From Nitrospirota bacterium (GTDB lineage Bacteria > Nitrospirota > Thermodesulfovibrionia > Thermodesulfovibrionales > JdFR-85): a DNA stretch of 40,014 bases. The stretch lies in assembly GCA_013152195.1 (NCBI GenBank), contig JAADGU010000012.1:1-40014 (forward strand), written 5' to 3'. A model generated the notes under the pieces. It saw only the letters and a program-made list of their open reading frames with translations, ran no database searches and had not been told where the DNA came from. Shown in pieces: positions 469 through 31,559 of the stretch; within the stretch, counting starts at the first letter, position 1, and the number at the start of each line of letters is the position of its first letter. The translations under genes were made by a program, and so were the position numbers.

Positions 469-817
469 GTACCAACTCCAGCAGGATTCGGGGGCTGAAA
501 GGTTTTGTTATGTAGCGGTCAACTCCGCATTTGATTCCCAGCTTTTCATCATCCTCCTGTCCCTTAGCCGTTAACATGAATACCGGTATGTTTGCAAGGT
601 CAGGGTCGGTCTTTATTGTTTTGCAGATGTTTATTCCACTGATCTCCGGCATCATCCAGTCAAGGATGATCAGGTCAGGCATCTCCCTTCGTATTACATC
701 AACAGCGCCTTTGCTCTCTCTGAGAGTAACAACCTCAAGCCCTCCACGTCTCAGCTTGTCCTCGATCATCATCAATATAAAGGGTTCATCATCGATTACC
801 ATCACTTTAGGCATCAT
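446..817 (-). CDS. stand-alone response regulator receiver (CheY-like)
   Basis: 123 aa. Has the acidic pocket VIDDEP, the phospho-acceptor Asp in LIILDWMMPE, then LTAKG and KPF. No output domain. Overlaps the kinase gene by 11 nt. Confidence 0.9.
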   Translation of the reverse strand: MMPKVMVIDDEPFILMMIEDKLRRGGLEVVTLRESKGAVDVIRREMPDLIILDWMMPEISGINICKTIKTDPDLANIPVFMLTAKGQEDDEKLGIKCGVDRYITKPFSPRILLELVLEQLGNK

Positions 818-4993: not shown

Positions 4994-5118
4994 AAAGGAT
5001 CTTTTTTTTCAAGCTGACACCGGCAGTGACTCGCCGGTGCCTGTCTCCCTTTTCCGATAGTCCCGTTTTGCCTTGAAGATCAGCAGTAGCCGGAGCCCCA
5101 AATGAGTTATAATATCAG

Positions 5119-6880: not shown

Positions 6881-6884
6881 CCCG

Positions 6885-7733: not shown

Positions 7734-7752
7734 ATAACCTCCTTTGGGTCTT

Positions 7753-8481: not shown

Positions 8482-8600
8482 AAAACCCTGACAACCCCCT
8501 GTTCAATGATGCTGGAAATGGATACGGCAATGGCTTTTTAATTATTTATAAATGGCTTTTCAATTTATGATATAAGTATAATATATTTTAACAACAAACG

Positions 8601-9164
8601 GTGAATTTTTCAGGCTGCCGGCCAGGGAGGTTTAAAATATCCCACTTGATTATTGATGGATATAATCTCATCGGAATACAGCACAGGGATCTCGAGTCCG
8701 AGAGGAACGGACTCGTCAAAAGGCTGATTAGATACAGGGGTGTTCTGGGGCATGATATAACCGTAGTCTTTGATGGTCATGGCGGCGTTTCATCAAGGGA
8801 GACGGTAAGGGTCGATGGCGGCGTCAGGATAATATTTTCGAGGATAGCGAAGAAGGCTGATGATGTGATAAAGGAGATGCTTGTCAGGGAGAAGAAGTTC
8901 TTTATTGTGGTCAGCTCGGACAGGGAGGTGGCTGATTTTGCCTGGGCTCAGGGGTCTGTGCCGGTTGGTTCCGCTGATTTCCTCGGAAAGCTCAGCCGTG
9001 CGTTAAGAGAGAAAGAATTTGCAGGTGATGAGGATATGATGGATGAATTAACAGAGAAGATGCTTGGTGATGAAGAAGATGATGAGTGGTCAGTCAGGAA
9101 GGGCTCTTCACACAGACTCTCAAAACGTCAGAAGGCCGTAACGAGGGCCTTGAACAAGTTATAA
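8601..9164 (+). CDS. YacP/Rae1-like NYN-domain (PIN-like) ribonuclease family protein
   Basis: IIDGYNLIG, ITVVFDG and VVSSDREV blocks with an acidic C-terminal tail. The start is uncertain: GTG 8601 has no SD, and TTG 8646 is the alternative. Confidence 0.7.
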   Translation: MNFSGCRPGRFKISHLIIDGYNLIGIQHRDLESERNGLVKRLIRYRGVLGHDITVVFDGHGGVSSRETVRVDGGVRIIFSRIAKKADDVIKEMLVREKKFFIVVSSDREVADFAWAQGSVPVGSADFLGKLSRALREKEFAGDEDMMDELTEKMLGDEEDDEWSVRKGSSHRLSKRQKAVTRALNKL

Positions 9165-10033
9165 TGGGGCTGAATTCCGGCAGGGTGAGGCCTGCAGATG
9201 CCATTACTGTAATCTTTGTCGCGCTCTTTGCCCTGTTGACCGTGATTTATTACGGCTCTATTGAATCTGCCGATAAACTGCTTGTTACATATATCTCGTT
9301 GCTGTTCATTCAATTGATCCTTATCAGGTATGCTCCTGAACGCGGGTTCTGGAAATTATTTCATGACATTGTCTTTCCTGTGATAGCCGTGTTCCTTGCA
9401 TTTGACAGCATGACAGAGCTCGTGCCGGGAGTAAACCCCGGGGATATTGATTACCTGCTCATACGGGCGGACTACTGGTTATTGGGGGGCTACCCCACGG
9501 TCTGGCTTGAAAGGGTGGTGAATCCCTATCTTACAGAGATACTGCAGTTGGCCTATACAAGCTATTATTTTCTTCCGGTTATTCTCGGGATCGTCCTCAG
9601 GATAAAGAAGAAAGAGACCGAGTTCAATGACGGCCTGGTCTTTATTCTCCTCTGCTTTTATCTGTCCTACGTCGGATACGTACTCTTTCCTGCACTTGGT
9701 CCGAGGTATACGATGAACCACCTCCAGTCAATTCCCCTTGAGGGCAAGCTGCTTTTTGAGAAGATATACGGTATACTCAATAGCATTGAAGGCATAAAGA
9801 GGGACGCCTTTCCAAGCGGTCACACAGCAGTAACCCTGGTAGTTCTGCACCTTGCATTCCGTTATGAAAAGAGGCTTTTTTATATCTATCTGCCGATAAC
9901 ACTCCTGCTCTTGTTTGCTACAGTCTATTGCCGGTATCACTATGTTGTGGATGTACTGGGGGGAATTGTACTGTATGTGATAACCATGATATCCGGGCAA
10001 TGGTTTATCAGGTCCTTCCGTAAATTCAGTTAA
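9164..10033 (+). CDS. PAP2-superfamily membrane phosphatase
   Basis: Multi-TM. KRDAFPSGHTAVT and CRYHYVVDVLGG match PAP2 motifs 2 and 3. ATG 9164 overlaps the upstream stop (TAATG). The 9086 start in the ORF track lies inside the upstream gene. Confidence 0.75.
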   Translation: MGLNSGRVRPADAITVIFVALFALLTVIYYGSIESADKLLVTYISLLFIQLILIRYAPERGFWKLFHDIVFPVIAVFLAFDSMTELVPGVNPGDIDYLLIRADYWLLGGYPTVWLERVVNPYLTEILQLAYTSYYFLPVILGIVLRIKKKETEFNDGLVFILLCFYLSYVGYVLFPALGPRYTMNHLQSIPLEGKLLFEKIYGILNSIEGIKRDAFPSGHTAVTLVVLHLAFRYEKRLFYIYLPITLLLLFATVYCRYHYVVDVLGGIVLYVITMISGQWFIRSFRKFS

Positions 10034-10144
10034 TTCCCTAGCCTTGTTTTACATCCTTGACTGGTTCAGGTTAATATATATGTCCGTGTTTATTTGAAGA
10101 TGCACAATTTGTCGTTCAAGTGAGGAGTAAACAAAGTTAACGTA

Positions 10145-10870
10145 ATGGAAGAACGAATTCAAAAGATACTCGCAAAAATGGGCATTGCCTCAAGGCGCAA
10201 GGCGGAAGAACTCATCCTTGAGGGCAGGGTGGTTGTAAACGGAAAGGCAGCTGTTCTCGGGATGAAGGTGGATCCTGAGAGGGACCACATCAGGGTTGAC
10301 GGCAAGCTTTTGCGCGGGTCTGAGCCAAAGGTCTACATCATACTTAACAAACCTCCCGGTGTTCTTACAACCCTTGAAGACCCCGAAGGCAGGCCAACGG
10401 TGCAGCAACTTCTCGGGAGGCTGAAGTTCAGGGTATACCCTGTCGGGAGGCTTGATTTCAATTCAGAGGGATTGCTGCTGCTGACAAATGACGGAGATCT
10501 TGCCTACAGGATAATCCATCCTTCCCACAAGATACCCAAGACGTATCTTGTAAAGATAAAAGGGGTGATAGAGGAGAAAGATATCAGCAAGCTGCGCAAG
10601 GGCATAAGGCTTGATGATGGCATGACTGCACCCGCAAAGATAAAGAGGGTCCGGGCGCCCAGGGCAGAGAAGAACTCATGGCTTGAAGTCACGATTTATG
10701 AAGGCAGGAAGAGGCAGATAAGGAGGATGTTTGAGCGGATGGGGCATACTGTGCTGAAACTCAGGAGGATCAGGATTGATGGTCTTGGTCTTGGGGAGCT
10801 CAGGACAGGACAGTGGAGATATCTGGATGAGGTTGAGGTGAAGAAACTGAAGAAGAGTCTTAAAATGTAA
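10145..10870 (+). CDS. rluB: 23S rRNA pseudouridine synthase, RsuA/RluB family
   Basis: N-terminal S4 domain (RIQKILAKMGIASRRKAEELI) and the catalytic block GRLDFNSEGLLLLTNDGDL. Confidence 0.88.
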   Translation: MEERIQKILAKMGIASRRKAEELILEGRVVVNGKAAVLGMKVDPERDHIRVDGKLLRGSEPKVYIILNKPPGVLTTLEDPEGRPTVQQLLGRLKFRVYPVGRLDFNSEGLLLLTNDGDLAYRIIHPSHKIPKTYLVKIKGVIEEKDISKLRKGIRLDDGMTAPAKIKRVRAPRAEKNSWLEVTIYEGRKRQIRRMFERMGHTVLKLRRIRIDGLGLGELRTGQWRYLDEVEVKKLKKSLKM

Positions 10871-10903
10871 AGTAAAAAGTGGATTCAGAGATGAACGGTT
10901 GTT

Positions 10904-11035
10904 GGAAACGATAAGATAGAGTCTTCACTCATTCTCGATGGACATCGTGTCCATCTCCGAGGGAATTTCACAATTCACCATCCGGGTGAATTTACTGCGA
11001 AATTAAAACCGTTCAGACTCTATCATATCGCTTCC
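10904..11035. repeat. structured intergenic element, copy 1 (21-bp closing stem, two inner stem-loops)
   Basis: Shares the blocks ATAGAGT, TTCACTCATTCTCG, CTCCGAGG, AATTT, TCACCATCCGGGTGA, AAACCGTTCA and ACTCTAT, in the same order, with 22286-22435. The stems are kept by compensatory changes (see findings). Confidence 0.75.
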
Positions 11036-11168
11036 TTCCCTTGCGAGAGACTTTTTGTCGTTGTATTTGCGTAAAACATAACCGGAGTTATGGAGAGCTG
11101 GAGAATTGGATTTTTCATTGCTCCAATACTCCAATGCCCCATTACTCCATAAAGACTCAGGAGGTATC

Positions 11169-12953
11169 ATGTACAGAGACAGGAATTGCGGAGAGGTTGG
11201 AGAGGCTGACATTGGTAAGGAACTTACCCTTTCGGGCTGGGTCTTCAGGAGACGTGACCATGGGGGGCTGATATTTGTTGACCTGAGGGACAGGAGCGGC
11301 CTTGTGCAGGTGGTATTCAGTCCGGACGTCTCTTCAGAGGCCCATGAGTCAGCCCATCTGCTCCGTTCAGAGTTTGTCATAAAGGTGAGGGGTAAGGTGA
11401 GCAGAAGACCTGAGGGTACGGAGAACCCCGATATCCCGACCGGTGCAGTTGAGCTCTATGCTGAGGAGTTGAATATATTGAGCAGGTCCGAGACACTGCC
11501 TTTTGTGCTGGAAGAGGCAGCGGATGTGTCCGAGTCCCTGAGGTTCAAGTACCGCTATCTCGACCTCAGGAGACAGGAGATGCAGGGGAATCTTGTATTC
11601 AGGCACAGGGTTACAAAGCTCATGCGCGACTATCTTGACAGAGAGGGTTTTATCGAGATAGAGACCCCCATGCTTACAAAGTCAACCCCTGAGGGTGCAA
11701 GGGACTATCTGGTGCCGAGCCGTCTCAATCCGGGCCAATTCTACGCCCTGCCGCAGTCCCCTCAACTCTTCAAGCAGATCCTGATGATGTCAGGGCTTGA
11801 AAGGTATTTTCAGGTCGTAAAGTGTTTCAGGGATGAGGACCTGAGGGCGGACCGTCAGCCCGAGTTTACGCAGGTTGATATGGAGATGTCATTTGTTGAG
11901 CCCGATGATGTGATCTCGGCGATTGAAGGGATGTTGTCCCACCTCTTTAAGGAGACCCTTGGGGTTGAGATAGAGACCCCCATGCTGCGTCTCTCTTACA
12001 GGGATGCAATGGAGCGTTTCGGCTCTGACAAGCCTGATCTCAGGTTTGGCCTGGAGCTCAGGGAGATGGGTGACCTTGCCCGGGAGGGAAGCTTTAAGGT
12101 CTTCCTCTCTGCCCTTGACTCAGGCGGCAGGGTAAAGGCCGTGTGCGGCAAGGGGATGGCCGGGCTCTCAAGAAAGGAGATGGACCTGCTGACGGAAGAG
12201 GTGCAGTCCTTTGGAGCAAAGGGGCTGGCATGGATAAAGATTAAAGACGGGTTTGAATCACCCATAGCGAAGTTTTTCCCTGAAAATGTCCTGAAGGAGA
12301 TGGCCCTGAGGCTTGAGGCAGAGGAGGGCGATATAATGCTCTTTGTGGCAGACAGGGAGGACGTGGTGCTTGATGTCCTTGGCAGGCTGAGGCTTGAGAT
12401 AGCAAGGAGGCAGGGCCTTGTCTCTGATGGCTTCAGGTTTCTCTGGGTTGTCGATTACCCACTGCTTGAGTGGGATGATGAAGGCAACAGGTTTCAGGCA
12501 ATGCACCATCCCTTTACATCACCCGCAGATGCCGATATGGAGAGGATGCTTGGAGAGGACATAAATGATGACCGCAATGGGCTGGCTTCTCTCAGGGCAA
12601 AGGCATATGATATAGTGCTTAACGGTAATGAGATCGGTGGCGGCAGTATACGTATTCACAACCCGGAGGTCCAGAGCAGGATGTTTGATGTCCTCGGGAT
12701 ATCAGAGGAAGAGGCAAGGATGAAATTCGGTTTTCTCCTTGATGCCCTTCGCTTTGGCGCTCCTCCTCACGGGGGTATTGCCCTGGGGCTTGACAGGCTT
12801 GTAATGCTCATGGTTGGCGCAAGCTCTATCAGGGACGTTATAGCCTTTCCCAAGACACAGAAGGCCGTCTGCCTGCTCAGCGGGGCCCCCTCACCAGTGG
12901 ATGAGAGGCAGTTAAAAGACCTTCATATCAAGCTGGACGCAGTCGTGGAGTAA
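11169..12953 (+). CDS. aspS: aspartate--tRNA ligase (class IIb)
   Basis: OB-fold N-terminus [24 protein letters not shown]. Has [26 protein letters not shown] and [11 protein letters not shown] 11169 sits just after AGGAGG (11159-11164). Confidence 0.95.
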
Positions 12954-19300: not shown

Positions 19301-19513
19301 ATGATACTGGAGACGAGCGTACAGGCCCAGTTCCTCATCCCCATGGCGATCAGCCTTGCTTTCGGGATACTCTTTGCTACAGGGATTACCCTGCTGCTTA
19401 TCCCCTCTCTTTATCTTGTCCTGGAAGATGTGCATAAACTCTTCAGGCTGCGCTCCATTCATACAGCTTCCCGCAATGAAATTGAAGAGAGTGAAGGTGC
19501 TCCCCGGTCATAA
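16327..19513 (+). pseudogene. RND efflux permease (AcrB/HAE1-like) interrupted by one frameshift near its C-terminal TM bundle
   Basis: ORF 16327-19158 is a typical RND permease up to ...PLLIMAAIP. The conserved continuation LGMVGAVAGHLIMGFKLSILSIFGIVALSGVVVNDSLLLID... is in the +1 frame (ORF 19064-19513). Confidence 0.85.
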
Positions 19514-20785
19514 TTCATCTGCGCCGGGAATTGTAACCCTGTTGCAAGGATTTTTCCCTCTCGTAAACCTGTATACCCTGTTGCGGCCCCCGTTTTTTGC
19601 GCAATACAGGGCCCGGTCCGCTGCTTTTATCAGTTCGTCTTTTGTATCAGCGTCTTCCGGAAAGGAGGCTATACCGATACTTATGGTTAGTGAGACGGTT
19701 TTACCCTCTACGAAAAAGGGGTGGCTTGCCACTGAAGAGCGCAGCCTTTCCGCCACCAGTTCAGCCTGCTTCAATGGCGTATCAGGGAGAATTACAGTGA
19801 ATTCCTCTCCCCCGTACCTGGCAGGGATATCTACACTACGGACGAGATTCCTGATAAGTCTTCCAATTGTTCTCAGGGCCTCATCCCCTGACATGTGACC
19901 GTAGGTATCATTAAAGCGTTTGAAGTGGTCGATGTCTGTCATGAGGAGAGAAAGCGTTTTTGTGTATCTCTTTGCCCTCAGAAACTCATGTTCAAGACGG
20001 TTGTGGAATTCCCTGTAGTTGTATAGTCCGGTAAGGCCGTCATGGGTGGCAAGTTCCTGTACTTTCTCATAAAGTCTGGCCTTTTCGATACGCAGTCCGA
20101 GGTAGTTCCCTATTGACGAGAAGATGCTAACATCTGAGGCGAGATGCAGATAACCAGGGGGGACAAAATACAGATAAATGAGACCCAAAACCTTGTCCCC
20201 GGACTTCAGCGGAATGCTGACATGGGCATGGTCCTCCTCCTTGCAGGCCGGGAGCATTCCTCCGTGATGTATTTCAGCCCGGCAGTAAGGGATTATATCG
20301 ACTTCCCCGGACTGTGCAGCCAGACCGCATATGCACTTGCCCAGGGGTATCCTTCCCCTGCAGCCCAGGGCTTCAGGGGAGATCCCTGAGGATGTGAAGT
20401 GAACGAGTTCTTCAGTTGCCTCATCAGTAAGGAATATGCCCCCGCTTATTTTTACCTCCCTGCCCACAGCCTTTTCCAGGGATTCCAGGGATCCGATGAT
20501 GGCTTTAAGGCTGTACTTAAGGATGTCCTTGATGCTGAGGTGTTTGCTTGCTACTGCAATAATTTCGTTAAAGGCCTTCAGTTCCCTTATCTCCAGGCCC
20601 TTCTTCAGGATCACCTCTGACCTTTTGGAGAGTTCGTTGAGGAGTCTTTCCTGTTCCCTGATGCTGGATAGCAACAGCTTTTCGTTTATTTCTGTCAGTC
20701 TTTTAACTTTCTCGAGCTCGAGCTTCAGGGAGTTGATTTCCCGGTCTTTTTTTGTCAGGTCGTTATCTTTTTCGTGATCTTTCAT
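19508..20785 (-). CDS. coiled-coil/GAF/GGDEF diguanylate cyclase
   Basis: Active site RYGGEEF, with an RxxD I-site (RSVD) five residues upstream. GAF-like block in the middle. I prefer ATG 20783-20785, which lies after the V4R stop, over the track start 20869, which would overlap V4R by 65 nt. Confidence 0.88.
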   Translation of the reverse strand: MKDHEKDNDLTKKDREINSLKLELEKVKRLTEINEKLLLSSIREQERLLNELSKRSEVILKKGLEIRELKAFNEIIAVASKHLSIKDILKYSLKAIIGSLESLEKAVGREVKISGGIFLTDEATEELVHFTSSGISPEALGCRGRIPLGKCICGLAAQSGEVDIIPYCRAEIHHGGMLPACKEEDHAHVSIPLKSGDKVLGLIYLYFVPPGYLHLASDVSIFSSIGNYLGLRIEKARLYEKVQELATHDGLTGLYNYREFHNRLEHEFLRAKRYTKTLSLLMTDIDHFKRFNDTYGHMSGDEALRTIGRLIRNLVRSVDIPARYGGEEFTVILPDTPLKQAELVAERLRSSVASHPFFVEGKTVSLTISIGIASFPEDADTKDELIKAADRALYCAKNGGRNRVYRFTRGKNPCNRVTIPGADEL

Positions 20786-20804
20786 GGAATCCTGACAGTC
20801 AGAT

Positions 20805-21260
20805 TCATAACAGATGGATCTGGAATTCGCAGTAATCAAAGCCTGATGTATGGCTTTTGGTCTGAACACCCTTTGTGGGCCTTTTCAGTACCCTCTCCAT
20901 GGCTCCCGCAATAATTCCCCCTTCAAAATGGCAGATCATCTTACCAATATCGGGCAGGCCGGAGCAGGTTATGCATTCATCGAGTCTGATAACAATCCTG
21001 TCGTCAGATGATTCCACAACCGTCAGAATGCCGATCTTCAGCTTCTTAAGGAGCGTGCCAAGCTCATCGACCGTGTTTACCTCAAGCTCAACACCGAGTT
21101 CTTTCCCGGCCAGATACAGGGTATAACCCGAGCCTTCACCCAGGATGCTATACATTCCGATTATTCTCAGCAGCCGAAATACCTCAACCGGAACCTCATC
21201 GCCAAGAGTTGGCCTTTTTGTTTTGCTGATATCCTCAAGCTTCACTTTTTTAATGTTCAT
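20805..21260 (-). CDS. V4R-domain (4-vinyl reductase-like) small-molecule-binding protein
   Basis: 151 aa. ...RLDECITCSGLPDIGKMICHFEGGIIAGAMERV... is the typical V4R Cys/Gly pattern. Confidence 0.7.
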   Translation of the reverse strand: MNIKKVKLEDISKTKRPTLGDEVPVEVFRLLRIIGMYSILGEGSGYTLYLAGKELGVELEVNTVDELGTLLKKLKIGILTVVESSDDRIVIRLDECITCSGLPDIGKMICHFEGGIIAGAMERVLKRPTKGVQTKSHTSGFDYCEFQIHLL

Positions 21261-21292: not shown

Positions 21293-22183
21293 TTAACTTG
21301 TCTTTCCAACCAACACCGGGCATTGACTGTGGCTGATTATCCTTCTTGATACGCTGCCCAGCATTCCCTTTATTCCCGTCAGACCTCTGCAACCGACAGC
21401 AATCAGGTCCACTCCAAATACACCTGCTGCGTTGAGTATCTCTATTGAGGGGTCCCCAATCTTTGTAATCCCCTCAATCTTATTGAATTTCTTGCTCAGG
21501 TATGGCCGGGCTTTCTCAATAATCCTGGATGATTCTTCAAACTCCAATGTCCTGGCCTTGGCTACTTCTTCTTTGATCTTATCATTTATTTCCATAATAA
21601 ACCTTTCCGGTATATCAGAGATGGCTGAACGGAGTACATTTATGATGATTACTTCGGCATCATCAGGGAACGGGATCGAGGCAAGAAATGCAGCAGTTGC
21701 ATGAGCTGAGTCAGAACCGTCTGTGGCAAAGAGAACCCTCATCCTGTCAGGTATCTCCCGAAGTGGAGGTTTGGTTACAAGGACAGGCTTTGGTGAGTTG
21801 ATTGCAACCGACCTGGTTACACTCCCGATGAAGAGCGATTTGACACCCTTTATTCCACGTGCGCCCATGACTATCAGGTCGACATCGGAAGCCACTGCTG
21901 CTTCGATAATTGCCTTGTCAGGGAAACCTTCGACAAGGGCCGTACTGATTCTTGCTTCTGCAGGTTTTAAAATATCGACCGCTGAATCGAGTATTTGCGG
22001 GGCAATCTTTTCTTTAAAATATTTAAGACTTATATAATAGGATTCCCTGTCATCATGATAGGGGCCCCAGCTTAATACATGGAGGACGATAATCTCATCA
22101 TCTGACGATAAGTTGAGTCTGGATAAGAATCCTGCCGCACCTTCTGAACATGCCGACCCGTCTGTGGCAAGCAATATCTTCAT
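21293..22183 (-). CDS. tandem universal stress protein (2 x UspA domains)
   Basis: Two repeats, each ending in an ATP-binding-type motif: MGARGIKGVKSLFIGSVT and VGCRGLTGIKGMLGSVS. Confidence 0.88.
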   Translation of the reverse strand: MKILLATDGSACSEGAAGFLSRLNLSSDDEIIVLHVLSWGPYHDDRESYYISLKYFKEKIAPQILDSAVDILKPAEARISTALVEGFPDKAIIEAAVASDVDLIVMGARGIKGVKSLFIGSVTRSVAINSPKPVLVTKPPLREIPDRMRVLFATDGSDSAHATAAFLASIPFPDDAEVIIINVLRSAISDIPERFIMEINDKIKEEVAKARTLEFEESSRIIEKARPYLSKKFNKIEGITKIGDPSIEILNAAGVFGVDLIAVGCRGLTGIKGMLGSVSRRIISHSQCPVLVGKTS

Positions 22184-23954: not shown

Positions 23955-24665
23955 TTAATCTGTAAGCTCATCAATATCTTCAAACAGCTTGGGAGATAAC
24001 ATAAACAGATCCCCGTTTTCAGTTATAAGATTACCTGACACGAGCCTTTTTATAACTTTCGAGATGGATTCCCTTGATGCCCCGATTCTCTCTGCAATTT
24101 CCTTATGTGTTCGTTTCTTGATCAGGTAGAAGCCGTTTTTTTTCTTCTTCCCCTCGTCTTTTATAAGCTTCTTGAATAACTTGACCAATCTTTGATGGAC
24201 AGCAAGGAAGGCAAGACTTTCCTCCCTTTCGGTTGCATTTCTCAGTCTCTGCACAAGAGACTTCAGAAGATCGATTGCAATCTCGGGGTCCTCTTTAATT
24301 GCATCAAGAAACCTGTTTCTCTCTAAAACTGCAAAGATTGAATCCTCTTCTGCTGTGACTGAAGCAGAACGCGGATTACCATCAATAAGGCTCATTTCCC
24401 CAAAAAAATCACCCGGGTTGAGATCTGTCAGTACAAACTCGTCTCCCTCCTCGCTCAACAGGGTTACTTTGACCTTGCCCTCAAGAATTATGTACATATC
24501 GGTGCTCTTGTCAGTCTGATAAAATACCGTTTCTCCTGCACGAAAAGTATGAATGGTAAAGTCATTAATTATCTGCTCCACACGTTTATCCGAAAGATTT
24601 CTGAATGCAGGAATTTCCTTCAGGAACTTCCCGACAAGAAGCTTGTCCTTTTCTTTTAAGATCAT
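23955..24665 (-). CDS. Crp/Fnr-family cyclic-nucleotide-binding transcriptional regulator
   Basis: cNMP-binding barrel (FFGEMSLIDGNPRSASVTA) and a C-terminal HTH (THKEIAERIGASRESISKVIKRL). Confidence 0.9.
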   Translation of the reverse strand: MILKEKDKLLVGKFLKEIPAFRNLSDKRVEQIINDFTIHTFRAGETVFYQTDKSTDMYIILEGKVKVTLLSEEGDEFVLTDLNPGDFFGEMSLIDGNPRSASVTAEEDSIFAVLERNRFLDAIKEDPEIAIDLLKSLVQRLRNATEREESLAFLAVHQRLVKLFKKLIKDEGKKKKNGFYLIKKRTHKEIAERIGASRESISKVIKRLVSGNLITENGDLFMLSPKLFEDIDELTD

Positions 24666-24773
24666 GGATTATACCTGCAGTTTTTTATTTGTATATACCC
24701 GAACCCGGAGATAAACAGTTTTTGGATGTGATATGTTTATGGTTTTTTATCACTGGACCCCGGTATTACAAGG

Positions 24774-24824
24774 GTTATGTAATGATAACAGCTTCTTGAC
24801 ATCAGAAAACCAATATGATACCTT
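24774..24824 (+). promoter_or_regulatory. 5-N6-5 dyad next to a candidate promoter for the cyclase gene
   Basis: GTTAT-gtaatg-ATAAC at 24774-24789. Then TTGACA (24796-24801), 17-nt spacer, TACCTT (24819-24824). The dyad has Crp/Fnr-type geometry but not the canonical sequence. Confidence 0.3.
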
Positions 24825-25017
24825 ACATTCTAAATATATATCCACTTTTTTTCTGTTATTTATCAGAGTTTGTTGGATATACACATAGGATTCAGGCATA
24901 TATGCTTTCATGGGTTTATTCCAGGATTTTTAAAAATCAATCTGGATAAATATAGTATATCATATCAGCTCTTCATCTATACGGTTTACTGTTGTCAGAA
25001 CAACAGAATAAATATAA

Positions 25018-27276
25018 ATGTCTAAATTACTGAAATCAGTTGTCCTGGGATTGGTTGTGGGTTTACTGGGCATTATCCTTAGCCTGAGCTCTTTTGGCCA
25101 TGAACTTGAAGAAAATCTTGGCCTTGGTCTGCTCTTTAAGCTGAGAGGGAAAAGGGATGCCCCTTCAGATGTTATAGTTGTCAATATTGACAGGGCATCT
25201 TCTGACAGGATGAACCTGCCGAAACGTCCCGTTGAATGGCCCCGTGCACTCCATGCCAGGCTTATAGATAATTTGCTCAGAGAAGGAGCGGAAGTTATAG
25301 TCTTTGATGTGACATTTGACAAAGAGAGCGATCCGGTAAATGACCGTATCTTTGCACAGGCAGTCCGCAAGGCCCGCAATGTTGTATTCTGTGAGTTTCT
25401 CAAGAAAGAGGTTGTTCCCTTTGGCGAACTGGATGGATATCATTCCGGAAAACTGGATATTGAAGAGTTGGTTCCGCCAATTCCCCTCCTTGCAGAGAAT
25501 GCTGCCGCTGTGGCACCTTTCCCTTTGCCCAAACTGCCCTTTCGTGTCAACCAGTACTGGACATTCAAGACATCTGCCGGCGATACCCCGACTTTACCGG
25601 TTGCAGCATTTCAGATCTATGGATTTCAGGTCTACAACGAATTTATTGAGCTGCTGAAAAAAAACTATACAGGTGAGAAAGATATACTCTCCATTCAGAA
25701 GGATGAACTTGTAGGTTCCGGCAGGGTTGTTGAATTCATGATGACTCTCAGGGATATTTTTCGTAAGGATCCAGCAATGGCAGACAGGATGTTTGCAGAG
25801 TTAAAAAACTCGAAAACATTTGCAGCAGACATGCGCAAGAGGCAGATTCTGACATCCCTGATAGAAATGTACCAGGCCCCGGACAGCCAGTACCTCAACT
25901 TTTACGGTCCTTCCAGTACCATTACAACTGTGCCGTATCATCAGGTGCTTTATATGAGTAACGATCTGGATACCGGCACAAGGGAGATTGATTTCAGGGG
26001 TAAAGTCGTATTTGTAGGACAGGCAGAGACCCAGCCATACCTGCAGAAAGACGGTTTTTATACTGTTTTTAGCACTGCTGATGGTTTGGACCTTAATGGT
26101 GTCGAGATTGCAGCCACAGCATTTGCAAATATTCTTGAGGGTCTGCATGTCACACCCCTCAGGATGCCTTCGCTTCTTGGCTTGATCCTGATTTTCGGAT
26201 TGTTCCTGGGATTGACTGCCTTTCTCCTCCCCTCCATCCCGGCGATTATGATCATAACCGGCATTAATGCATTATATCTTTACTTTGCTCTTTATCAGTT
26301 CAGGATGGAGGGGGGCTGGTACCCCCTTGTGGTGCCATGCCTGTTACAGTCACCTGCATCTTTTTTTGGTGCTGTTATCTGGAAGTATGTTGATACAGGC
26401 AGGGAACGGCAAAAAATAAGAAAGGCCTTCAGCTACTACCTGCCTGAAGATATTGTTGATACGTTAATAACGAATATCGGCGATGTCAGGGCAAGTACCC
26501 AGATTGTAAACGGGACATGTCTGTATACCGATCTGGAGCAGTATACTGCGCTGTCTGAAACAATGGAACCGGAAGAGCTGAGCAGTTTCGTCAAGCAATA
26601 TTATGAGACTATTTTTGGTCCGGTAAAACGATATGGTGGTGTTATTTCCAATGTCGTTGCTGATTCAATGCTGGCATTATGGGTCTCCGCTCTGCCAGAT
26701 GATCCGCAAAGGAAGAAAGCCTGTCTTGCAGCACTTGATTTGGCAGAGGCTGTTAAAGTGTTTAATCAATCCTCCAGTGATGTAAAAATATCAACGAGGA
26801 TAGGCTTGAATTTCGGCCGTTTTCTGCTCGGAAATATCGGTGCCATTGATCATTACGAGTACCGTCCTATTGGTGATATCGTTAACACGACGGCACGGAT
26901 AGAGGGTCTGAATAAACACCTGGGCACATATTTGCTGGCCTCGGAAGAGACAGTTGAAGGCGTCGGAGGGATTCTTATGAGAGAACTGGGTGTTTTTCTT
27001 TTGTACGGGAAGGCAAAACCAGTAAGGGTATTTGAATTGATATGCCGTACCGATAAAATGACAGAAGCTCAGCAGGAGCTGTGTTTAAGCTTTGCTGAAG
27101 CCCTTGATGCCTTCAGAAATCAGATGTGGGAAGATGCTGCAGAAAGGTTTAATGATATAATAAGAAAATACGGAAAAGACGGCCCGTCTCAATACTATCT
27201 GAACTTAATTCATAGTTGCAGGGAAAATCCTCCTGGAAAATCATGGGATGGTGTTATTTGTGTGGAAAAAAAATAG
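25018..27276 (+). CDS. CHASE2 sensor-domain class III nucleotidyl (adenylate/guanylate) cyclase
   Basis: 752 aa. N-terminal TM segment, a large extracytoplasmic CHASE2-like region (VVVNIDRAS..., VFDVTFD), a TM cluster around residues 385-450, and a cyclase domain (CLYTDLEQYTALSE ... VADSMLALW ... GDIVNTTARIEG). Confidence 0.85.
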   Translation: MSKLLKSVVLGLVVGLLGIILSLSSFGHELEENLGLGLLFKLRGKRDAPSDVIVVNIDRASSDRMNLPKRPVEWPRALHARLIDNLLREGAEVIVFDVTFDKESDPVNDRIFAQAVRKARNVVFCEFLKKEVVPFGELDGYHSGKLDIEELVPPIPLLAENAAAVAPFPLPKLPFRVNQYWTFKTSAGDTPTLPVAAFQIYGFQVYNEFIELLKKNYTGEKDILSIQKDELVGSGRVVEFMMTLRDIFRKDPAMADRMFAELKNSKTFAADMRKRQILTSLIEMYQAPDSQYLNFYGPSSTITTVPYHQVLYMSNDLDTGTREIDFRGKVVFVGQAETQPYLQKDGFYTVFSTADGLDLNGVEIAATAFANILEGLHVTPLRMPSLLGLILIFGLFLGLTAFLLPSIPAIMIITGINALYLYFALYQFRMEGGWYPLVVPCLLQSPASFFGAVIWKYVDTGRERQKIRKAFSYYLPEDIVDTLITNIGDVRASTQIVNGTCLYTDLEQYTALSETMEPEELSSFVKQYYETIFGPVKRYGGVISNVVADSMLALWVSALPDDPQRKKACLAALDLAEAVKVFNQSSSDVKISTRIGLNFGRFLLGNIGAIDHYEYRPIGDIVNTTARIEGLNKHLGTYLLASEETVEGVGGILMRELGVFLLYGKAKPVRVFELICRTDKMTEAQQELCLSFAEALDAFRNQMWEDAAERFNDIIRKYGKDGPSQYYLNLIHSCRENPPGKSWDGVICVEKK

Positions 27277-27385
27277 ATACAGTGTGTAATATAAGAGTAT
27301 TGGTTAATCGTTTCTGCGATGCAAAAGTTACAGTGAGGTCTTTTCCTCGAGTTTTAAAATGTTCCTTTTTAAGGAGGATATTTAT

Positions 27386-30300
27386 TTGAGACCGATTTTG
27401 CCCCGTCTTCTTATTTTGTTAACTCTTCTTTTTTTACTCCCGGTAATTATTCCCTCACATGCCATGGCTGCAGAGAAATGTGAGGTGTTGGTAGCAAAGG
27501 TGGTTTCTGTTCAGGGCATAGCTGAAGTCAGGAGAGCAGGGGGGATAGAGTGGAAACCCATTAGATTGAACAACACGTTTTGTCCCGGGGATATGATCCG
27601 TCTTAAGGAAGACAGCCGGGCATCCATTGTTCTGAGCAATGAAACCATTATCCGGCTTGACCAGAATACGACTATAACGTTCAGTGGGATTGAGAAGAAA
27701 GAGACCTCCCTGCTTGACCTTATAAAAGGGGCCGTTCATTTCCTGAGCCGTGTTCCCAGAACTCTCAAGGTTATCACCCCTTATGTGAATGCTTCAGTAG
27801 AGGGTACGGAATTCCTGGTTAGAGTAGACAAGGGTAAAACCTTCCTGTCGGTCTTTGAAGGGAAGGTCCTGGCCTCAAACAGTTCAGGAAGTCTGGTGTT
27901 GACAGGTGGCCAGTCGGCCGTTGCAGAAGAGGGGAGGGCTCCGGTACTGAAAGTTGCTGTTAATCCCAGGGATGCAGTACAATGGGCGCTCTATTACCCT
28001 CCTATTGTGGAGTATCCCGAGAAAATAACTGAAGACGAAAGGAATCCGTTGTACCTGACTTACCGGGCTTCGTTGATGCTTTCTGTAGGCCGTGTTGAAG
28101 AGGCACGCAGATATATCGAGCGGGCATTGTCTCTGGAGCCTGAAAACAGTCAGGCCATTGCACTTCAGTCTGTTATTTCTGTTGTGCAGAATGACAAGGA
28201 ACGTGCCCTTGTCCTTGCACAGAAGGCTGTTAATGCCGATCCCTCATCAGCTGCAGCACTTATCGCCCTTTCTTATGCACAGCAGGCAAACTTCGATCTT
28301 AAGGGGGCTCTGAAAAGCCTCCGGAAGGCAGTGGAGACTGAACCTGAAAACAGTCTTGCCTGGGCACGTCTGTCAGAGATGTGGCTGTCTTTCGGATATC
28401 TTGACAAGTCTCTTGAGGCAGCACATAAAGCCGTTGAGTTGAACCCAAACCTGTCACGTACGCAAACAGTCCTTGGCTTCGCATACCTTGCACAGGTTAT
28501 GATTCAGGAGGCCAGGGATGTTTTTGAAAAGGCTATTGAACTGGACCAGGCTGATCCGCTTGCGCGTCTTGGTCTGGGACTGGCAAAAATCCGTCAGGGG
28601 TATCTGAAGGAAGGACGCAGGGAAATTGAGATTGCCGTAAGCCTGGATCCAAACCAGTCTATTATCAGGAGCTATCTCGGGAAGGCATACTATGAAGAAA
28701 AGCGGGAGAAGCTCTCAAAAGACCAGTACGGTGTAGCGAGGGAACTCGACCCCCTTGATCCCACCCCTTTCTTCTACGATGCGATTCTGAAACAGAGCAT
28801 TAATCGTCCGGTAGAGGCACTACATGATATGCAGGAAGCAATAGAGCTGAATGATAACCGGGCTGTATACCGTTCCAGGCTTCTGCTTGATGATGACCTT
28901 GCAGCACGCAGTGCAAGTATTGCCCGCATTTACAGTGACCTCGGGTTTCAGCGGCTTGCCCTTGTGGAGGGATGGAAATCGGTTAATACGGATCCAAAGA
29001 ACTACTCAGCACACAGGTTGCTGGCCGATACATATGCCTCACAGCCACGCCACGAGATAGCACGGGTCAGCGAACTCCTCCAGTCTCAACTGCTTCAACC
29101 TCTCAACATAACCCCGGTTCAACCACGGCTTGCTGAGAGCAATCTGTTTGTTTTTGATCGGGCCGGTCCGGGAGACCTGTCATTTAATGAATTTAATCCC
29201 CTTTTCAACCGGAACCGGTTAGCATTGCAGTTAAGTGGAGTTTACGGTGGAAATGCTACCTTCGGTGATGAAATTGTTGCATCAGGTGTATATGACAGGT
29301 TTTCCTTAAGCACGGGACAGTTCCATTACGAGACAGATGGATTCAGGAGAAATAATGATCTTCGGGAGGATATCTATAATATATTTGCCCAGTACAATAT
29401 CTCCTACAAGACAAGCATCCAGGCTGAATTCCGCTACAAGAAAAAGGAAAACGGGGACCTGTCACTCAACTTTGATCCTGATGCATTTTTTTCTTCCGGA
29501 AGAGAGGAGGAGGAGGGCACGTCAATACGTTTGGGTTTTCATCACAGTTTTACGCCAAACTCGGAAATAATAGCATCTGCTATCCATAAAAGTGCTGAAT
29601 ATGATTACTTTGTTTCCACTTCTGATCCTGTTGCCGGAGCACCAACGACAACGGAAGTCACACTTAACGCTAAAGATAGGGGCTACCTTTGGGAAATCCA
29701 GCACCTTTATAATGCAGAGCTGACACACATTATTAGTGGTTTAGGTTTCTTCAGCTCTGATGCTGAGAATAAAACAACGACTACTATCAAGATGCCCCCA
29801 CTTCCGGCGATCTCGCCTCCTGCAACATTTGAGCAGACCGATGTGCGCCACAGCAACCTTTATGTCTATTCACATATCAACTACCCCGATGCTGTAGTGT
29901 GGACCATCGGAGGAAGCGCTGATTTTTTTGATAACGAAACGATTGATAGAACCCAGTTTAATCCAAAGATTGGTATGACCTGGACCCTTCCGACCAACAC
30001 GACCCTCCGGGGTGCTGTCTTCAGGACATTAAAGAGACAGCTCATTTCGAACCAGACGATTGAGCCAACCCAGGTGGCAGGGTTCAATCAGTTTTTTGAT
30101 GACGCCAATGGAACGGATGCCTGGAGATATGGTGTTGCGATAGATCAGAAGTTCACCCGGAATATTTTTAGTGGCGCAGAGTTCTCCAGGCGTAAAATGG
30201 ATGTACCGTTTAAGATGCTGACAATCCTGCCACCTCCCTCCGAACCTGTTACTGAAAATAAAGTGGCGGATTGGGAAGAAGACATAGTTCGCGTTTATCT

Positions 30301-30715
30301 GTATCTGACACCTGCAAACTGGTTGGCAATCAGTGGCGAATACCAATATGAAGACTTCAAAAGAGACCTGGAATATTTCGGTCCTGAAGATATAGAACGT
30401 TTAAAAACCCGGAGATTGCCCTTGAGTCTCTCTTTTTTCGGTTCCAATGGCCTGACAACCGTAATTACAACAACTTACGTGGATCAGAAAGGGAAGTTTG
30501 TTAATCCCGTTAGCCTGGTATTATTTGAAGACAGTGACCGGTTCTGGGTTGTTGATGCGTCCATCAGATATCGATTACCTAAACGCTATGGTATAGTTTC
30601 AGTCGAAGCACGAAACCTGTTCAATGAAACATTCAAGTTCCAGGATACCGATTCTACAAATCCATCCATTTATCCGGAGCGATTAATACTGGCTAAAGTT
30701 ACATTGGCATTTTGA
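27386..30715 (+). CDS. secreted FecR-domain / multi-TPR / C-terminal beta-barrel-like fusion protein
   Basis: TTG 27386 lies 8 nt after AAGGAGG and gives the signal peptide (M)RPILPRLLILLTLLFLLPVIIPSHAMA/AEK. The track ATG 27359 has no SD. FecR blocks: GDMIRLKEDSRASIVLSNETIIRLDQNTTITF and VITPYVNASVEGTEFLV. About 8-10 TPRs follow. The last ~500 aa are rich in alternating beta patterns and end RLILAKVTLAF with a terminal aromatic residue. Confidence 0.8.
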   Translation: MRPILPRLLILLTLLFLLPVIIPSHAMAAEKCEVLVAKVVSVQGIAEVRRAGGIEWKPIRLNNTFCPGDMIRLKEDSRASIVLSNETIIRLDQNTTITFSGIEKKETSLLDLIKGAVHFLSRVPRTLKVITPYVNASVEGTEFLVRVDKGKTFLSVFEGKVLASNSSGSLVLTGGQSAVAEEGRAPVLKVAVNPRDAVQWALYYPPIVEYPEKITEDERNPLYLTYRASLMLSVGRVEEARRYIERALSLEPENSQAIALQSVISVVQNDKERALVLAQKAVNADPSSAAALIALSYAQQANFDLKGALKSLRKAVETEPENSLAWARLSEMWLSFGYLDKSLEAAHKAVELNPNLSRTQTVLGFAYLAQVMIQEARDVFEKAIELDQADPLARLGLGLAKIRQGYLKEGRREIEIAVSLDPNQSIIRSYLGKAYYEEKREKLSKDQYGVARELDPLDPTPFFYDAILKQSINRPVEALHDMQEAIELNDNRAVYRSRLLLDDDLAARSASIARIYSDLGFQRLALVEGWKSVNTDPKNYSAHRLLADTYASQPRHEIARVSELLQSQLLQPLNITPVQPRLAESNLFVFDRAGPGDLSFNEFNPLFNRNRLALQLSGVYGGNATFGDEIVASGVYDRFSLSTGQFHYETDGFRRNNDLREDIYNIFAQYNISYKTSIQAEFRYKKKENGDLSLNFDPDAFFSSGREEEEGTSIRLGFHHSFTPNSEIIASAIHKSAEYDYFVSTSDPVAGAPTTTEVTLNAKDRGYLWEIQHLYNAELTHIISGLGFFSSDAENKTTTTIKMPPLPAISPPATFEQTDVRHSNLYVYSHINYPDAVVWTIGGSADFFDNETIDRTQFNPKIGMTWTLPTNTTLRGAVFRTLKRQLISNQTIEPTQVAGFNQFFDDANGTDAWRYGVAIDQKFTRNIFSGAEFSRRKMDVPFKMLTILPPPSEPVTENKVADWEEDIVRVYLYLTPANWLAISGEYQYEDFKRDLEYFGPEDIERLKTRRLPLSLSFFGSNGLTTVITTTYVDQKGKFVNPVSLVLFEDSDRFWVVDASIRYRLPKRYGIVSVEARNLFNETFKFQDTDSTNPSIYPERLILAKVTLAF

Positions 30716-30797
30716 TCCAATTTTGATAAGCCGTGGAGTTTTTCAGTTGCAGGGTTCTTGAGAACCTGAATATTATTTCCATCAGAGGAGGTGTGTA

Positions 30798-31013
30798 ATG
30801 CCGAAGGTAGTCATGAGATTAGCAGTAATGGATAACGGAACGATTAAAGTAGAAAAAGGTGACATGGGAGTACCGGAGAAATTGACCAAACCTGCATTCA
30901 GGAAGAGCCTTCACGGAAAAAAGATGAAGAATGCTGAAAGCATCATGGTTCTTCAGAGCAATCCTTGCACCTGGGTGAATGCCCTTGGTACATGGTATTA
31001 CATCTGCTGGTAG
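30798..31013 (+). CDS. 71-aa hypothetical protein with a basic N-terminal part and a Cys/Trp-rich C-terminal tail
   Basis: GAGGAGG (30785-30791) lies 6 nt before the ATG, and an intrinsic terminator lies 57 nt after the stop. The sequence ends ...SNPCTWVNALGTWYYICW. I recognise no family. Confidence 0.6.
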   Translation: MPKVVMRLAVMDNGTIKVEKGDMGVPEKLTKPAFRKSLHGKKMKNAESIMVLQSNPCTWVNALGTWYYICW

Positions 31014-31070
31014 CAATAAGTCAGATATCGATTATCCTTTTTTATAGTAATACTTGTCCAGTAAGTGGAG

Positions 31071-31097
31071 AAACCGGCCGAAAGGCCGGTTTTTTTT
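31071..31097 (+). terminator. rho-independent terminator
   Basis: AAACCGGCC-GAAA-GGCCGGTTT followed by a T-run: 9-bp GC-rich stem, GNRA-type loop, 8 T. Confidence 0.85.
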
Positions 31098-31226
31098 GAC
31101 ACATGACGCCATCGGTTCCAGTTATCTGAGTACCTTCCCTCAATTATCCTTCTTTAAGTTAATGAATGCTTCTGCCAATGTGAATTTTACCTTTACTCCT
31201 CCTGAAGATAATGTTAAATTTATTTC

Positions 31227-31559
31227 ATGAAGGAAGACATAAAAGAAAATTGCTGGGAGTTCATGAGATGCGGGAGAGAACCCGGGGGAGTGCATGCAGA
31301 AGAACTTGGGGTCTGTCCGGTTACCACAGAAGTCTCTGCAGATGGTTTAAATGGTGGTGTCAATGGGGGAAGGGTCTGTTGGGTTATTGAAGACAATTGT
31401 TGTCGCGATGCACTTGAAAAGATTGGCAGGAGTAAGAAATCTTCCTGTATGAGATGTGAATTTCATATTCGTGTTAAATCTGAAGAAAGTATTCTGGATC
31501 TGTGTAACACAATCGGAAAGTATCTGACTGAAATTCATCCTGTTGAAGCCCTTTATTAG
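31227..31559 (+). CDS. stand-alone Cys-rich 'two-CW'-type domain protein
   Basis: 110 aa: NCWEFMRCGREPGG...LGVCPV...NGGVNGGRVCWVIEDNCC...SSCMRCEF. This matches my recollection of the two-CW domain, which is usually N-terminal in larger signalling proteins. No clear SD. Confidence 0.6.
   Translation: MKEDIKENCWEFMRCGREPGGVHAEELGVCPVTTEVSADGLNGGVNGGRVCWVIEDNCCRDALEKIGRSKKSSCMRCEFHIRVKSEESILDLCNTIGKYLTEIHPVEALY

Follow-up and report, generated by a model that had tools for sequence, protein, structure and literature searches.

Introduction

To our knowledge, the only CHASE2-based signalling pathway that has been dissected genetically is the NsrA/CyaK/Clr pathway of Sinorhizobium meliloti. In this pathway, the CHASE2 cyclases CyaK and CyaD1/D2 need the outer-membrane protein NsrA in order to perceive plant signals, and the cyclic AMP (cAMP) that they form activates the Crp-family protein Clr (PMC7529298, PMC13001267). 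The CHASE2 domain itself is a very common extracytoplasmic sensor domain, whose ligands and mechanism of activation are unknown (PMC5192318). Related sets of genes have been described from other bacteria, viz. a cAMP cluster of Campylobacterota containing a CHASE2 cyclase, a phosphodiesterase, a FecR-domain outer-membrane protein as well as a TPR protein, whose horizontal spread among phyla has been noted (PMC9239204), and the "BiofilmReg" operon of Burkholderia, which encodes a response regulator, a LysM-FecR protein, a CHASE2 histidine kinase and a DUF4136 protein (PMC5192318). The present work concerns a cluster of five genes (positions 23955-31559) in a 40-kb stretch of DNA from an uncultured Nitrospirota lineage (contig JAADGU010000012.1, 40,014 nucleotides, referred to below as the window), some of the closest relatives of which come from hydrothermal-vent metagenomes. 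These genes encode a Crp-type regulator and, divergently from it, a CHASE2 cyclase, a FecR-TPR-barrel protein, a 71-aa protein with a Cys/Trp-rich tail (the mini-protein) and a two-CW protein. In a first-pass annotation of this DNA, the cluster was described as lacking the usual partners of its FecR-like and TPR-barrel components. However, the FecR/CHASE2 partnership is established in the literature and this description is therefore the wrong frame: far from being an orphan, the cluster belongs, as an ordinary example, to a kind of system that is already known. There is a good probability that it represents a module for trans-envelope signalling by cyclic nucleotides, of the NsrA/CyaK/Clr kind and in the genomic form that is commonest for it.

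Results

Homology and predicted fold of the FecR-TPR-barrel protein

The five open reading frames (ORFs), the gaps between them, the Shine-Dalgarno (SD) sequence, the terminator and the dyad reported in the first-pass annotation were all located where it had placed them, and its domain calls (Crp, CHASE2 cyclase, FecR-TPR-barrel and two-CW) hold by Pfam/NCBIfam matches (Table 1). A tblastn search of plasmids with the FecR-TPR-barrel protein led to a gene of S. meliloti pSymB annotated as nsrA, which lies directly upstream of cyaK. The BLASTP alignments with NsrA (1200 aa) are collinear, matching residues 17-498 with residues 9-506 of NsrA over the signal peptide, FecR and TPR parts (E 6e-20), and residues 776-1096 with residues 884-1183 within the barrel (E 8e-8), which in NsrA has been described as spanning aa 600-1200 (PMC7529298). 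The Pfam layout of FecR plus TPR is also common to the two proteins. Based on these alignments, the 1118-aa protein of the window is a full-length homologue of S. meliloti NsrA.

In the window protein, Pfam matches are seen for FecR (2e-16, residues 80-170), for many TPR families (residues 220-560) and, weakly, for an outer-membrane-protein barrel, and a hydrophobic N-terminal segment (residues 8-39, ending AMA/AE) constitutes a signal peptide. In the AlphaFold2 (AF2) model, a FecR beta-sandwich (about 46-198) is followed by a TPR solenoid (about 230-445), then by a poorly modelled helical linker (448-618), and finally by a barrel of 22 strands (620-1117). When the barrel was searched with Foldseek, the top matches were the TonB-dependent transporters (TBDTs) FptA, FpvA, FhuA and FecA (E about 1e-16, about 560 aligned columns), and siderophore, cobalamin and copper TBDTs are included among the matches; PF00593 is called in many relatives of the protein. 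The barrel is thereby predicted to be of the 22-stranded TBDT fold and not BcsC/PgaA-like. The protein thus combines a signal peptide and FecR domain, a TPR region with a C-terminal barrel of ~500 aa, homology to NsrA and pairing with a CHASE2 cyclase, as may be expected of an NsrA-type receptor. No match to Plug (PF07715) or STN was obtained with the Pfam models at E<=0.01 for this protein, a TonB box not having been searched for.

The claim that the usual partners are lacking does not agree with these results, or with those described in the next section. Since the barrel is TBDT-like, the usual partner of a FecR domain is in this case fused to the FecR domain itself, and the usual genomic partner of the family is a CHASE2 cyclase. 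The analogy with BcsC, PgaA and PelB that had been drawn is likewise without structural or contextual support. A polysaccharide exporter of this type was considered and rejected, as the fold search gives TBDTs and no synthase neighbours were found; with the PgaA model TIGR03939 the score is 23.6 bits, the cutoff being 366.65, and the weak NCBIfam matches to PgaA and PrsT are confined to the TPR region.

Two other observations may be recorded for this protein. The helical segment 448-618 (28700-29210) is among the most conserved stretches of the family, with many invariant columns, and its AF2 pLDDT is <50; it may take the place of a plug or bind a partner. Further, the database copy of the protein (P0001, 1076 aa) begins at V43 and drops the signal peptide (27359-27487); the reading of 1118 aa agrees with the lengths of the homologues (1080-1150 aa).

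Genomic association of the receptor with CHASE2 cyclases

The family of the barrel protein comprises >5,600 proteins at E<=1e-10, and full-length relatives are present in at least 587 species-level genomes, from Nitrospirota, Desulfobacterota, Gammaproteobacteria, Rokubacteria, Brocadia, Binatia, Spirochaetes and others. Neighbourhood statistics were obtained for 80 sampled genome loci with a radius of 8 kb (89 loci in the wider set used for ORFs and cyclic nucleoside monophosphate (cNMP)-binding proteins). The co-occurrence of FecR-TPR-barrel genes with CHASE2 cyclases, which the first-pass annotation had proposed as a check, is borne out: a homologue of the CHASE2 cyclase is found within this radius in 66 of the 80 loci, in 4 more the upstream sequence is incomplete, and 50 of the 69 scorable loci have the cyclase gene directly before the barrel gene, in the same orientation. 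The close relatives of the window are collinear with it across 20 kb and are therefore uninformative. Four loci with about 57% identity and unrelated flanks all keep the cyclase, the barrel gene and a small ORF.

Some of the loci depart from this pattern. In L076, two FecR-TPR-barrel genes are arranged in tandem (4407-7736 and 7914-11270), with no cyclase in the available flank. In L054 (12319-14961) and L070 (10279-12876), HAMP-PAS-GGDEF-EAL proteins are encoded within about 1 kb after barrel genes that have no cyclase, an arrangement which hints at a possible variant with cyclic di-GMP output.

The CHASE2 cyclase and its substrate-specifying residues

The cyclase matches CHASE2 (1e-28, residues 19-397) and Guanylate_cyc (6e-10, residues 499-631) in Pfam, and S. 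meliloti CyaK in BLASTP (E 8e-25). Its hydropathy profile indicates an N-terminal transmembrane segment (1-30) and a transmembrane cluster (378-455), so that the CHASE2 domain lies between the two, the class III catalytic domain coming after the cluster. The catalytic residues were assessed in an alignment with solved class III cyclases (CyaB 3r5g and 2w01) and 70 module cyclases (71 in total). The metal-binding residues D505/D549 and the transition-state residues N623/R627 are present, and they are conserved in 68-70 of the 71 family members. As these residues are kept, the cyclase is not a dead enzyme, an eventuality in which the earlier proposal was to fall.

The residues specifying the substrate present a different picture. 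The pair in the window cyclase is N545/E614 and not the ATP-specifying Lys...Asp, which is seen in CyaK (K...D, canonical for ATP). This is a feature of the family, in which the pair is mostly (D/N)...E (48 of 71 cyclases); a minority subtype, in which the cyclase gene follows the barrel gene, has an E...A pair of GTP-like look. Due to the non-canonical pair, cAMP is not to be assumed as the product, which is not assignable from sequence. In mycobacteria, cAMP can be formed even by cyclases whose pairs are non-canonical.

A conserved small-protein family encoded downstream of the receptor

The mini gene is preceded by the SD sequence GGAGG, 7 nt before its ATG, which is the strongest SD in the operon. 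Between this gene and its orthologue in L002, the differences by codon position are 6/8/33, i.e., mostly at position 3. On these grounds the 71-aa ORF is a real gene. The mini-protein with its Cys/Trp tail, strong SD and own terminator was correctly described in the first-pass annotation, in which its importance was however underestimated. Two motifs, an N-terminal hairpin "h.h.hD..G.h.V" and a C-terminal "SNPCxWVxxGGxWYWxCW", are shared by the small ORFs that follow barrel genes in distant loci. A hidden Markov model (HMM) seeded with 5 sequences and iterated over the 13,950 ORFs of the 89 loci gave 48 hits. In 42 of them the ORF directly follows a barrel gene on its strand, and the remaining 6 lie within 5 kb of one; 37 of the 80 sampled loci are represented among the hits, and inspection by eye shows more. 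After the cyclase/barrel pair, the mini-protein is the most conserved accessory gene of the module and, judged from its motifs and placement, it recurs as an accessory of the main subtype of the module.

When 1.84 billion proteins were compared exhaustively with a profile of the family, 19 cluster representatives were obtained at E<=1e-3. A word-indexed profile search returned only 13 proteins, as the sequence is short and divergent. The size of the family is therefore better judged from synteny. In all 4 informative contigs from hits found by sequence only, the C-terminus of a barrel protein is encoded directly upstream, and one of these contigs runs cNMP-kinase, CHASE2 cyclase, barrel, mini. 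No family in Pfam-A or NCBIfam matches the mini-protein even at E<=1, and the fold search (AF2 pLDDT 66, best Foldseek match E 0.37) is, because of these values, uninformative. With regard to a precursor of a ribosomally synthesised and post-translationally modified peptide or of a pheromone, no conserved neighbours for maturation or export are seen, and the C-terminal "core" is the most conserved part of the protein.

Several variants of this part of the module were observed. The mini gene is doubled in L019 (11444-11695 and 13412-13765), L057 (11394-11690 and 11712-12083) and L094 (985-1206 and 1256-1813), and one of the proteins of the last locus, P0147, has a signal peptide and two tandem mini domains. 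In the subtype with the cyclase about 1 kb downstream of the barrel gene, the slot between them is occupied by secreted Cys-rich proteins of 200-360 aa with no Pfam family (L021:4020-4892, L024:11295-12188, L031:11394-12218, L053:11426-12502 and L032:6229-7714). The slot proteins of L021 and L024 end in "...HTWYFISGRY(I/V)WR", which is the mini motif.

The Crp-type regulator, other cNMP-binding effectors and the two-CW protein

The window Crp matches cNMP_binding (8e-26) and HTH_Crp_2 in Pfam, and aligns over its full length with E. coli CAP (about 1e-25) and with PDB 7pza (E 1e-21), which we take to be S. meliloti Clr. Its phosphate-binding cassette, FGE...RSA, is intact. With the CRP equivalog model NF008732 it scores 114.6 bits, the cutoff being 266, and by this measure it is a member of the CRP family and not a CRP ortholog. 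The gene adjoins the module in the close relatives L001-L003, L010 and L011. In the larger sample, about 12 of the 80 loci have a Crp-type gene within 8 kb of the module, and in several cases it is divergent from the cyclase gene, which is also its arrangement in the window. Orthology of these module-adjacent Crp proteins was considered but is not claimed, as their similarities (E 1e-28 to 1e-36) are no better than a generic similarity to E. coli CRP.

If all cNMP-binding proteins are counted, 30 of the 89 loci have one within 8 kb of the module, and many of these are directly adjacent. The partners fused to cNMP domains include a sigma54 activator, a patatin, a glutaminase, SulP, DUF294, BTAD and a kinase. 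The adjacency of Crp is thus specific to certain lineages, and elsewhere other cNMP-binding effectors stand in for it. It is on the basis of these interchangeable cNMP receptors beside the module that we infer a functional coupling of the cyclase with the adjacent Crp in the window, and in this Nitrospirota lineage Crp is likely the output of the module.

Residues 7-85 of the two-CW protein are recognised by NF045718, with 91.1 bits where the cutoff is 35. Its gene lies beyond the terminator and has no obvious SD. It stands beside the module in L001-L004, L010 and L011, including L004 with its different flanks, and was not found in the other sampled loci. Its membership of the module, as given in the first-pass annotation, is not upheld in this form, since it is linked with the module only in a close Nitrospirota clade; a functional link may exist, but its support is weak.

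Conserved elements in the divergent spacer

Conservation of the spacer between the crp and cyclase genes was judged from an alignment with the four orthologous spacers of L001, L002, L010 and L011 (5 sequences in all), in which two conserved blocks with invariant cores stand out, the rest being about 60% identical. In the first-pass annotation, a dyad GTTAT-N6-ATAAC beside a TTGACA was taken as a candidate autoregulatory site. The dyad (24774-24789) and the TTGACA are both present, but the role of the dyad as an operator does not hold up: perfect 5-N6-5 dyads are expected 0.63 times per shuffled spacer (P of at least one, 0.47), and the dyad is absent at the aligned position in all four orthologous spacers. 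It is probably not functional.

In block 1, TTGACA and ATATGATAC are invariant in 5/5 spacers, as are about 24 of the 33 positions of the block. It may represent an extended -10 promoter facing the cyclase gene, with a predicted start of transcription near 24831, which was not scored by a simple promoter scan because its -10 hexamer is weak. Block 2 is mostly conserved over the five spacers, with an invariant core TCATATC, and at this block the scan reported a promoter-like TTTAAA-16-TATAGT. The 8-mer ATATGATA occurs in 4 copies in the window, two of them in the spacer, in opposite orientation and one per conserved block (24813-24820, + strand, in block 1 and, inverted, 24958-24965, - strand, in block 2). 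A perfect palindrome closer to the cyclase gene contains TGTT-N8-AACA (24990-25005), which is unique in the window and is the form of the palindromic Clr-box of S. meliloti (PMC5498481). It is not kept as a palindrome in the aligned relatives, and dyads with 7-bp arms are not rare in shuffled spacers (P = 0.39); it is a candidate for a Crp site or for an mRNA hairpin. TGTGA-N6-TCACA was not found. As candidate Crp-binding elements, block 1, block 2 and this palindrome would be better targets than the dyad.

Layout of the cluster and the rest of the window

Table 1. Coordinates of the genes and other features of the cluster in the Nitrospirota window
Feature	Position	Strand	Size and remarks
Crp/Clr-type cNMP-dependent transcription factor	23955-24665	-	236 aa
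Divergent spacer, crp/cyclase gene	24666-25017		352 bp, AT-rich, 31% GC
Conserved block 1	24793-24825	+	TTGACA (24796-24801), 17-nt spacer, TGa-TACCTT (24816-24824)
Conserved block 2, ATATAGTATATCATATC	24950-24966		with -10 TATAGT (24951-24956, +)
Perfect 7-N4-7 palindrome CTGTTGT-CAGA-ACAACAG	24989-25006		reads TGTT-N8-AACA; 13 nt before cyclase ATG
Inner-membrane CHASE2-sensor class III nucleotidyl cyclase, CyaK/CyaD-type homologue	25018-27276	+	752 aa
NsrA-type outer-membrane receptor (FecR-TPR-barrel)	27359-30715	+	1118 aa
Small hairpin GGGTTCTTGAGAACC in barrel/mini gap	30752-30767	+	terminator scan, poor T-tail
Mini-protein gene, unannotated small-protein family	30798-31013	+	71 aa, pI 9.6
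Intrinsic terminator CCGGCC-GAAA-GGCCGG + T8	31074-31097	+	3' of mini gene
Stand-alone two-CW-domain protein	31227-31559	+	110 aa, 9 Cys

The gaps between the cyclase and barrel genes, the barrel and mini genes, and the mini and two-CW genes are 82, 82 and 213 nt, respectively. The hairpin between the barrel and mini genes is a candidate for a weak terminator-like or processing element, and the terminator after the mini gene is predicted to close a cyclase-barrel-mini transcription unit. An Rfam search of the spacer and the intergenic gaps gave no riboswitch or structured RNA, only terminator look-alikes; the weak matches to small RNAs at 31074-31097 are due to the terminator hairpin alone.

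Among the scanned ORFs of the window, and the called genes of the collinear loci that cover its flanks, none encodes an extracytoplasmic function (ECF) sigma factor, TonB/ExbBD, a separate TonB-dependent receptor or a polysaccharide synthase. In the remainder of the window, the genes are housekeeping genes or serve signalling of an unrelated kind. Among them is that of a large HAMP-PAS-GAF histidine kinase and, by collinearity with L001, GAF-GGDEF, V4R/DUF2507 and tandem-Usp proteins are encoded just upstream of the module. Signalling genes are abundant around the module (ORFs 807-4037, 19508-20869, 20805-21260 and 21293-22183, all on the - strand).

Discussion

The interpretation of the cluster as a module of the NsrA/CyaK/Clr kind is supported by the homologies, by the architecture and predicted fold of the receptor, by the intact catalytic residues, by synteny and by the small-protein family. 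According to this interpretation, the 1118-aa protein would be inserted in the outer membrane by its TBDT-like barrel of 22 strands, with its FecR and TPR parts projecting into the periplasm. A surface or periplasmic cue would be sensed by it and the signal passed to the periplasmic CHASE2 domain of the inner-membrane cyclase, which would then form a cyclic nucleotide in the cytoplasm. This nucleotide would be read here by the divergently encoded Crp, and in other lineages by other adjacent cNMP effectors. The 71-aa protein, co-transcribed after the barrel gene, would be an accessory, and most likely it binds an extracytoplasmic part of the system (barrel/FecR/TPR or CHASE2). The pathway proposed in the first-pass annotation, viz. 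from an envelope signal to the CHASE2 cyclase, cNMP and Crp, and with an outer-membrane protein in it, matches that of NsrA/CyaK/Clr and is consistent with the homology and synteny described above. It is by this analogy that we infer the direction of signal flow; the nucleotide made, the part of Crp as its cognate receptor, and what the mini-protein does and where it resides are put forward here in the same conditional sense.

A number of observations weigh against this interpretation or parts of it. The signal flow is taken over by analogy from an alphaproteobacterial symbiont, the proteins of which are only 25-28% identical to those of the window. A nearby cyclase is not found at 10 of the 80 barrel loci, and for these 10 no alternative CHASE2 partner (kinase or GGDEF) is seen among the flanking large ORFs. 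The confidence of the AF2 model of the barrel protein is moderate (pLDDT 72, pTM 0.48) and residues 448-618 are unmodelled. The pair N545/E614 fits neither ATP- nor GTP-specific cyclases. No Crp gene is present upstream in L004, the barrel protein of which is 65% identical, or in most of the distant loci; adjacency of Crp is thus not general and the protein may also serve other cyclases. The window mini-protein is without a signal peptide, while about nine members of its family carry signal peptides or lipoboxes. Lastly, no mini-like ORF was found at nsrA-cyaK of S. meliloti, and hence the mini-protein is not essential for such systems everywhere.

Other explanations of the cluster must be weighed against these considerations. 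If a FecR sensor and a TPR/barrel exporter had lost their normal partners and been recruited to a cyclase, then the cluster would be a novel orphan, and the lack of an ECF sigma factor, a separate TonB-dependent receptor and a polysaccharide synthase among the genes found in the window, as well as the weak NCBIfam matches of the TPR region to PgaA and PrsT, would be accounted for. However, the normal partner of this family is a CHASE2 cyclase, its relatives are not mostly beside ECF sigma or polysaccharide synthase genes, the protein is a homologue of NsrA with a barrel predicted to be TBDT-like and not that of a 16-18-strand exporter, and the arrangement is already in the literature (PMC9239204, PMC7529298, PMC13001267, PMC5192318); this explanation is hence considered highly improbable. 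A somewhat better case can be made, although it too is unlikely, for a barrel that is primarily a TonB-dependent nutrient importer, the occupancy of which is reported by the cyclase in a Fec-like manner with cNMP as the output. The fold matches to siderophore, cobalamin and copper TBDTs and the calls of PF00593 in many relatives are in keeping with an importer, and contact between a FecR domain and a TBDT is known from the Fec system (PMC5498481). Nevertheless, there is no Plug (PF07715) match at E<=0.01 (the search did not extend to a TonB box), TonB/ExbBD genes were not found in the window, the family-specific conserved helical segment sits where a plug would be, and neither a periplasmic binding protein nor an ABC importer is conserved alongside in the four distant loci.

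The remaining alternatives bear on the smaller genes rather than on the receptor. The 71-aa protein could be the precursor of a disulfide-looped peptide signal, sensed by the barrel or CHASE2 in an autocrine or quorum-type loop. In this case, the conserved Cys pair flanking a Trp/Tyr-rich hairpin at its extreme C-terminus, the strongest SD of the operon together with its own terminator, the signal peptides or lipoboxes of some family members, and its basic nature, which is shared by the known protein ligand of S. meliloti NsrA (PMC7529298), would all find an explanation. However, no conserved protease, exporter or modifying enzyme is encoded beside the mini gene, the window copy is without an export signal, the whole 70-aa sequence and not the tail alone is conserved as a small domain, and the tandem two-domain protein P0147 suits a folded binding protein better than a pheromone. 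A peptide signal is likewise unlikely. More serious consideration is due to the possibility, which we still regard as the doubtful one, that the five genes are not one system but a cyclase-barrel-mini unit with Crp and two-CW as unrelated neighbours that are kept by collinearity within a narrow clade. The whole 20-kb neighbourhood of the close relatives is collinear and thus uninformative, L004 is without an upstream Crp, and the two-CW gene lies past a strong terminator and was not seen at any other sampled locus. As regards Crp, it speaks against such a division that Crp-type or other cNMP-binding genes recur directly beside the module in many unrelated lineages; as regards two-CW, its gene is kept beside the mini gene in L004 despite the changed flanks. 

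A signalling module of the NsrA/CyaK/Clr kind is therefore preferred here, and its significance extends beyond this locus. The receptor/CHASE2 cyclase pair is present in at least 587 species of many phyla, and its commonest form includes a small protein, conserved but unannotated, and a cyclase whose substrate pair is non-canonical. Taken together, these findings turn a rhizobium-specific story into one of a general trans-envelope signalling system. With respect to the accessible literature, this small-protein family and the family-wide non-canonical pair are new. It may tentatively be suggested, with rather less than even confidence, that the ~70-aa protein is an integral third subunit of the major NsrA-type/CHASE2 subtype and that the (D/N)...E cyclases may make a product other than cAMP. 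Such a subunit could be a co-receptor, an adaptor between FecR/TPR and CHASE2, or the cognate ligand, and if it exists, then its family would be the first biochemical handle on what CHASE2 domains sense. For the window itself, the practical outcome is its correct annotation.

Comparison with known systems

Of the systems described earlier, that of S. meliloti is closest to the window module. The same three protein types are found in both, and in both an outer-membrane receptor, an inner-membrane cyclase, a cNMP and a transcription factor would act in series. The differences concern gene order (cyclase then barrel in the window, nsrA then cyaK in S. meliloti), the low identity of the proteins already noted, the substrate pair (N/E in the window cyclase where CyaK has K/D), the Crp gene, which is adjacent in the window whereas no clr gene is present within the examined 14.5-kb nsrA-cyaK stretch, and the mini gene, which follows the barrel gene in the window and is missing at nsrA-cyaK. 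As the lineage is an uncultured Nitrospirota and not a plant symbiont, the cue must also differ from plant uL2. The chromosomal order clr-cyaD1-smc02177-smc02178 of S. meliloti would parallel that of the window, the order being presumed by us and not confirmed by the paper on these genes. SMc02177 has a FecR domain, and SMc02178 is periplasmic, with no sequence clues (PMC5498481). The gene next upstream of nsrA on pSymB, divergent from it (L009:6229-6774), encodes a DUF5706 protein with the Pfam domain PycTM (Pycsar effector domain, E 3e-11); a cyclic-pyrimidine-responsive effector domain is in this case adjoining a cyclase-linked receptor.

The Campylobacterota cluster similarly brings a CHASE2 cyclase together with FecR/outer-membrane and TPR functions but, by its description, these reside in a separate FecR-outer-membrane protein and TPR protein, along with a phosphodiesterase, whereas in the window FecR, TPR and barrel are fused (PMC9239204). 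No phosphodiesterase was identified beside the window module in the domain and neighbour calls. The BiofilmReg operon resembles the module in having a secreted FecR-domain protein and a CHASE2 sensor, after which comes an extracytoplasmic protein that is small and uncharacterised. However, its output is a histidine kinase/response regulator, its FecR protein carries LysM in place of TPR and barrel, and its small protein, DUF4136, is unrelated to the mini family. With BcsC, PgaA and PelB the window protein has in common a periplasmic TPR region before a C-terminal outer-membrane barrel, but its barrel is predicted to be of the 22-strand TBDT-like type, no synthase genes were found, and the PgaA model remains below its cutoff. 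In the FecA/FecR/FecI system, as in the module, a TBDT-type barrel and a periplasmic FecR domain relay a surface signal to an inner-membrane transducer. A system of the Fec type has a sigma factor, an anti-sigma domain with FecR, and a TBDT with a Plug and an N-terminal signalling domain; in the window, no ECF sigma factor was found, there is no anti-sigma domain, and a Plug match is missing at E<=0.01, the TonB box being outside the search. Further, the FecR domain of the window protein is fused to the barrel and not anchored in the inner membrane, where its partner is instead a CHASE2 cyclase with a cyclic nucleotide as output.

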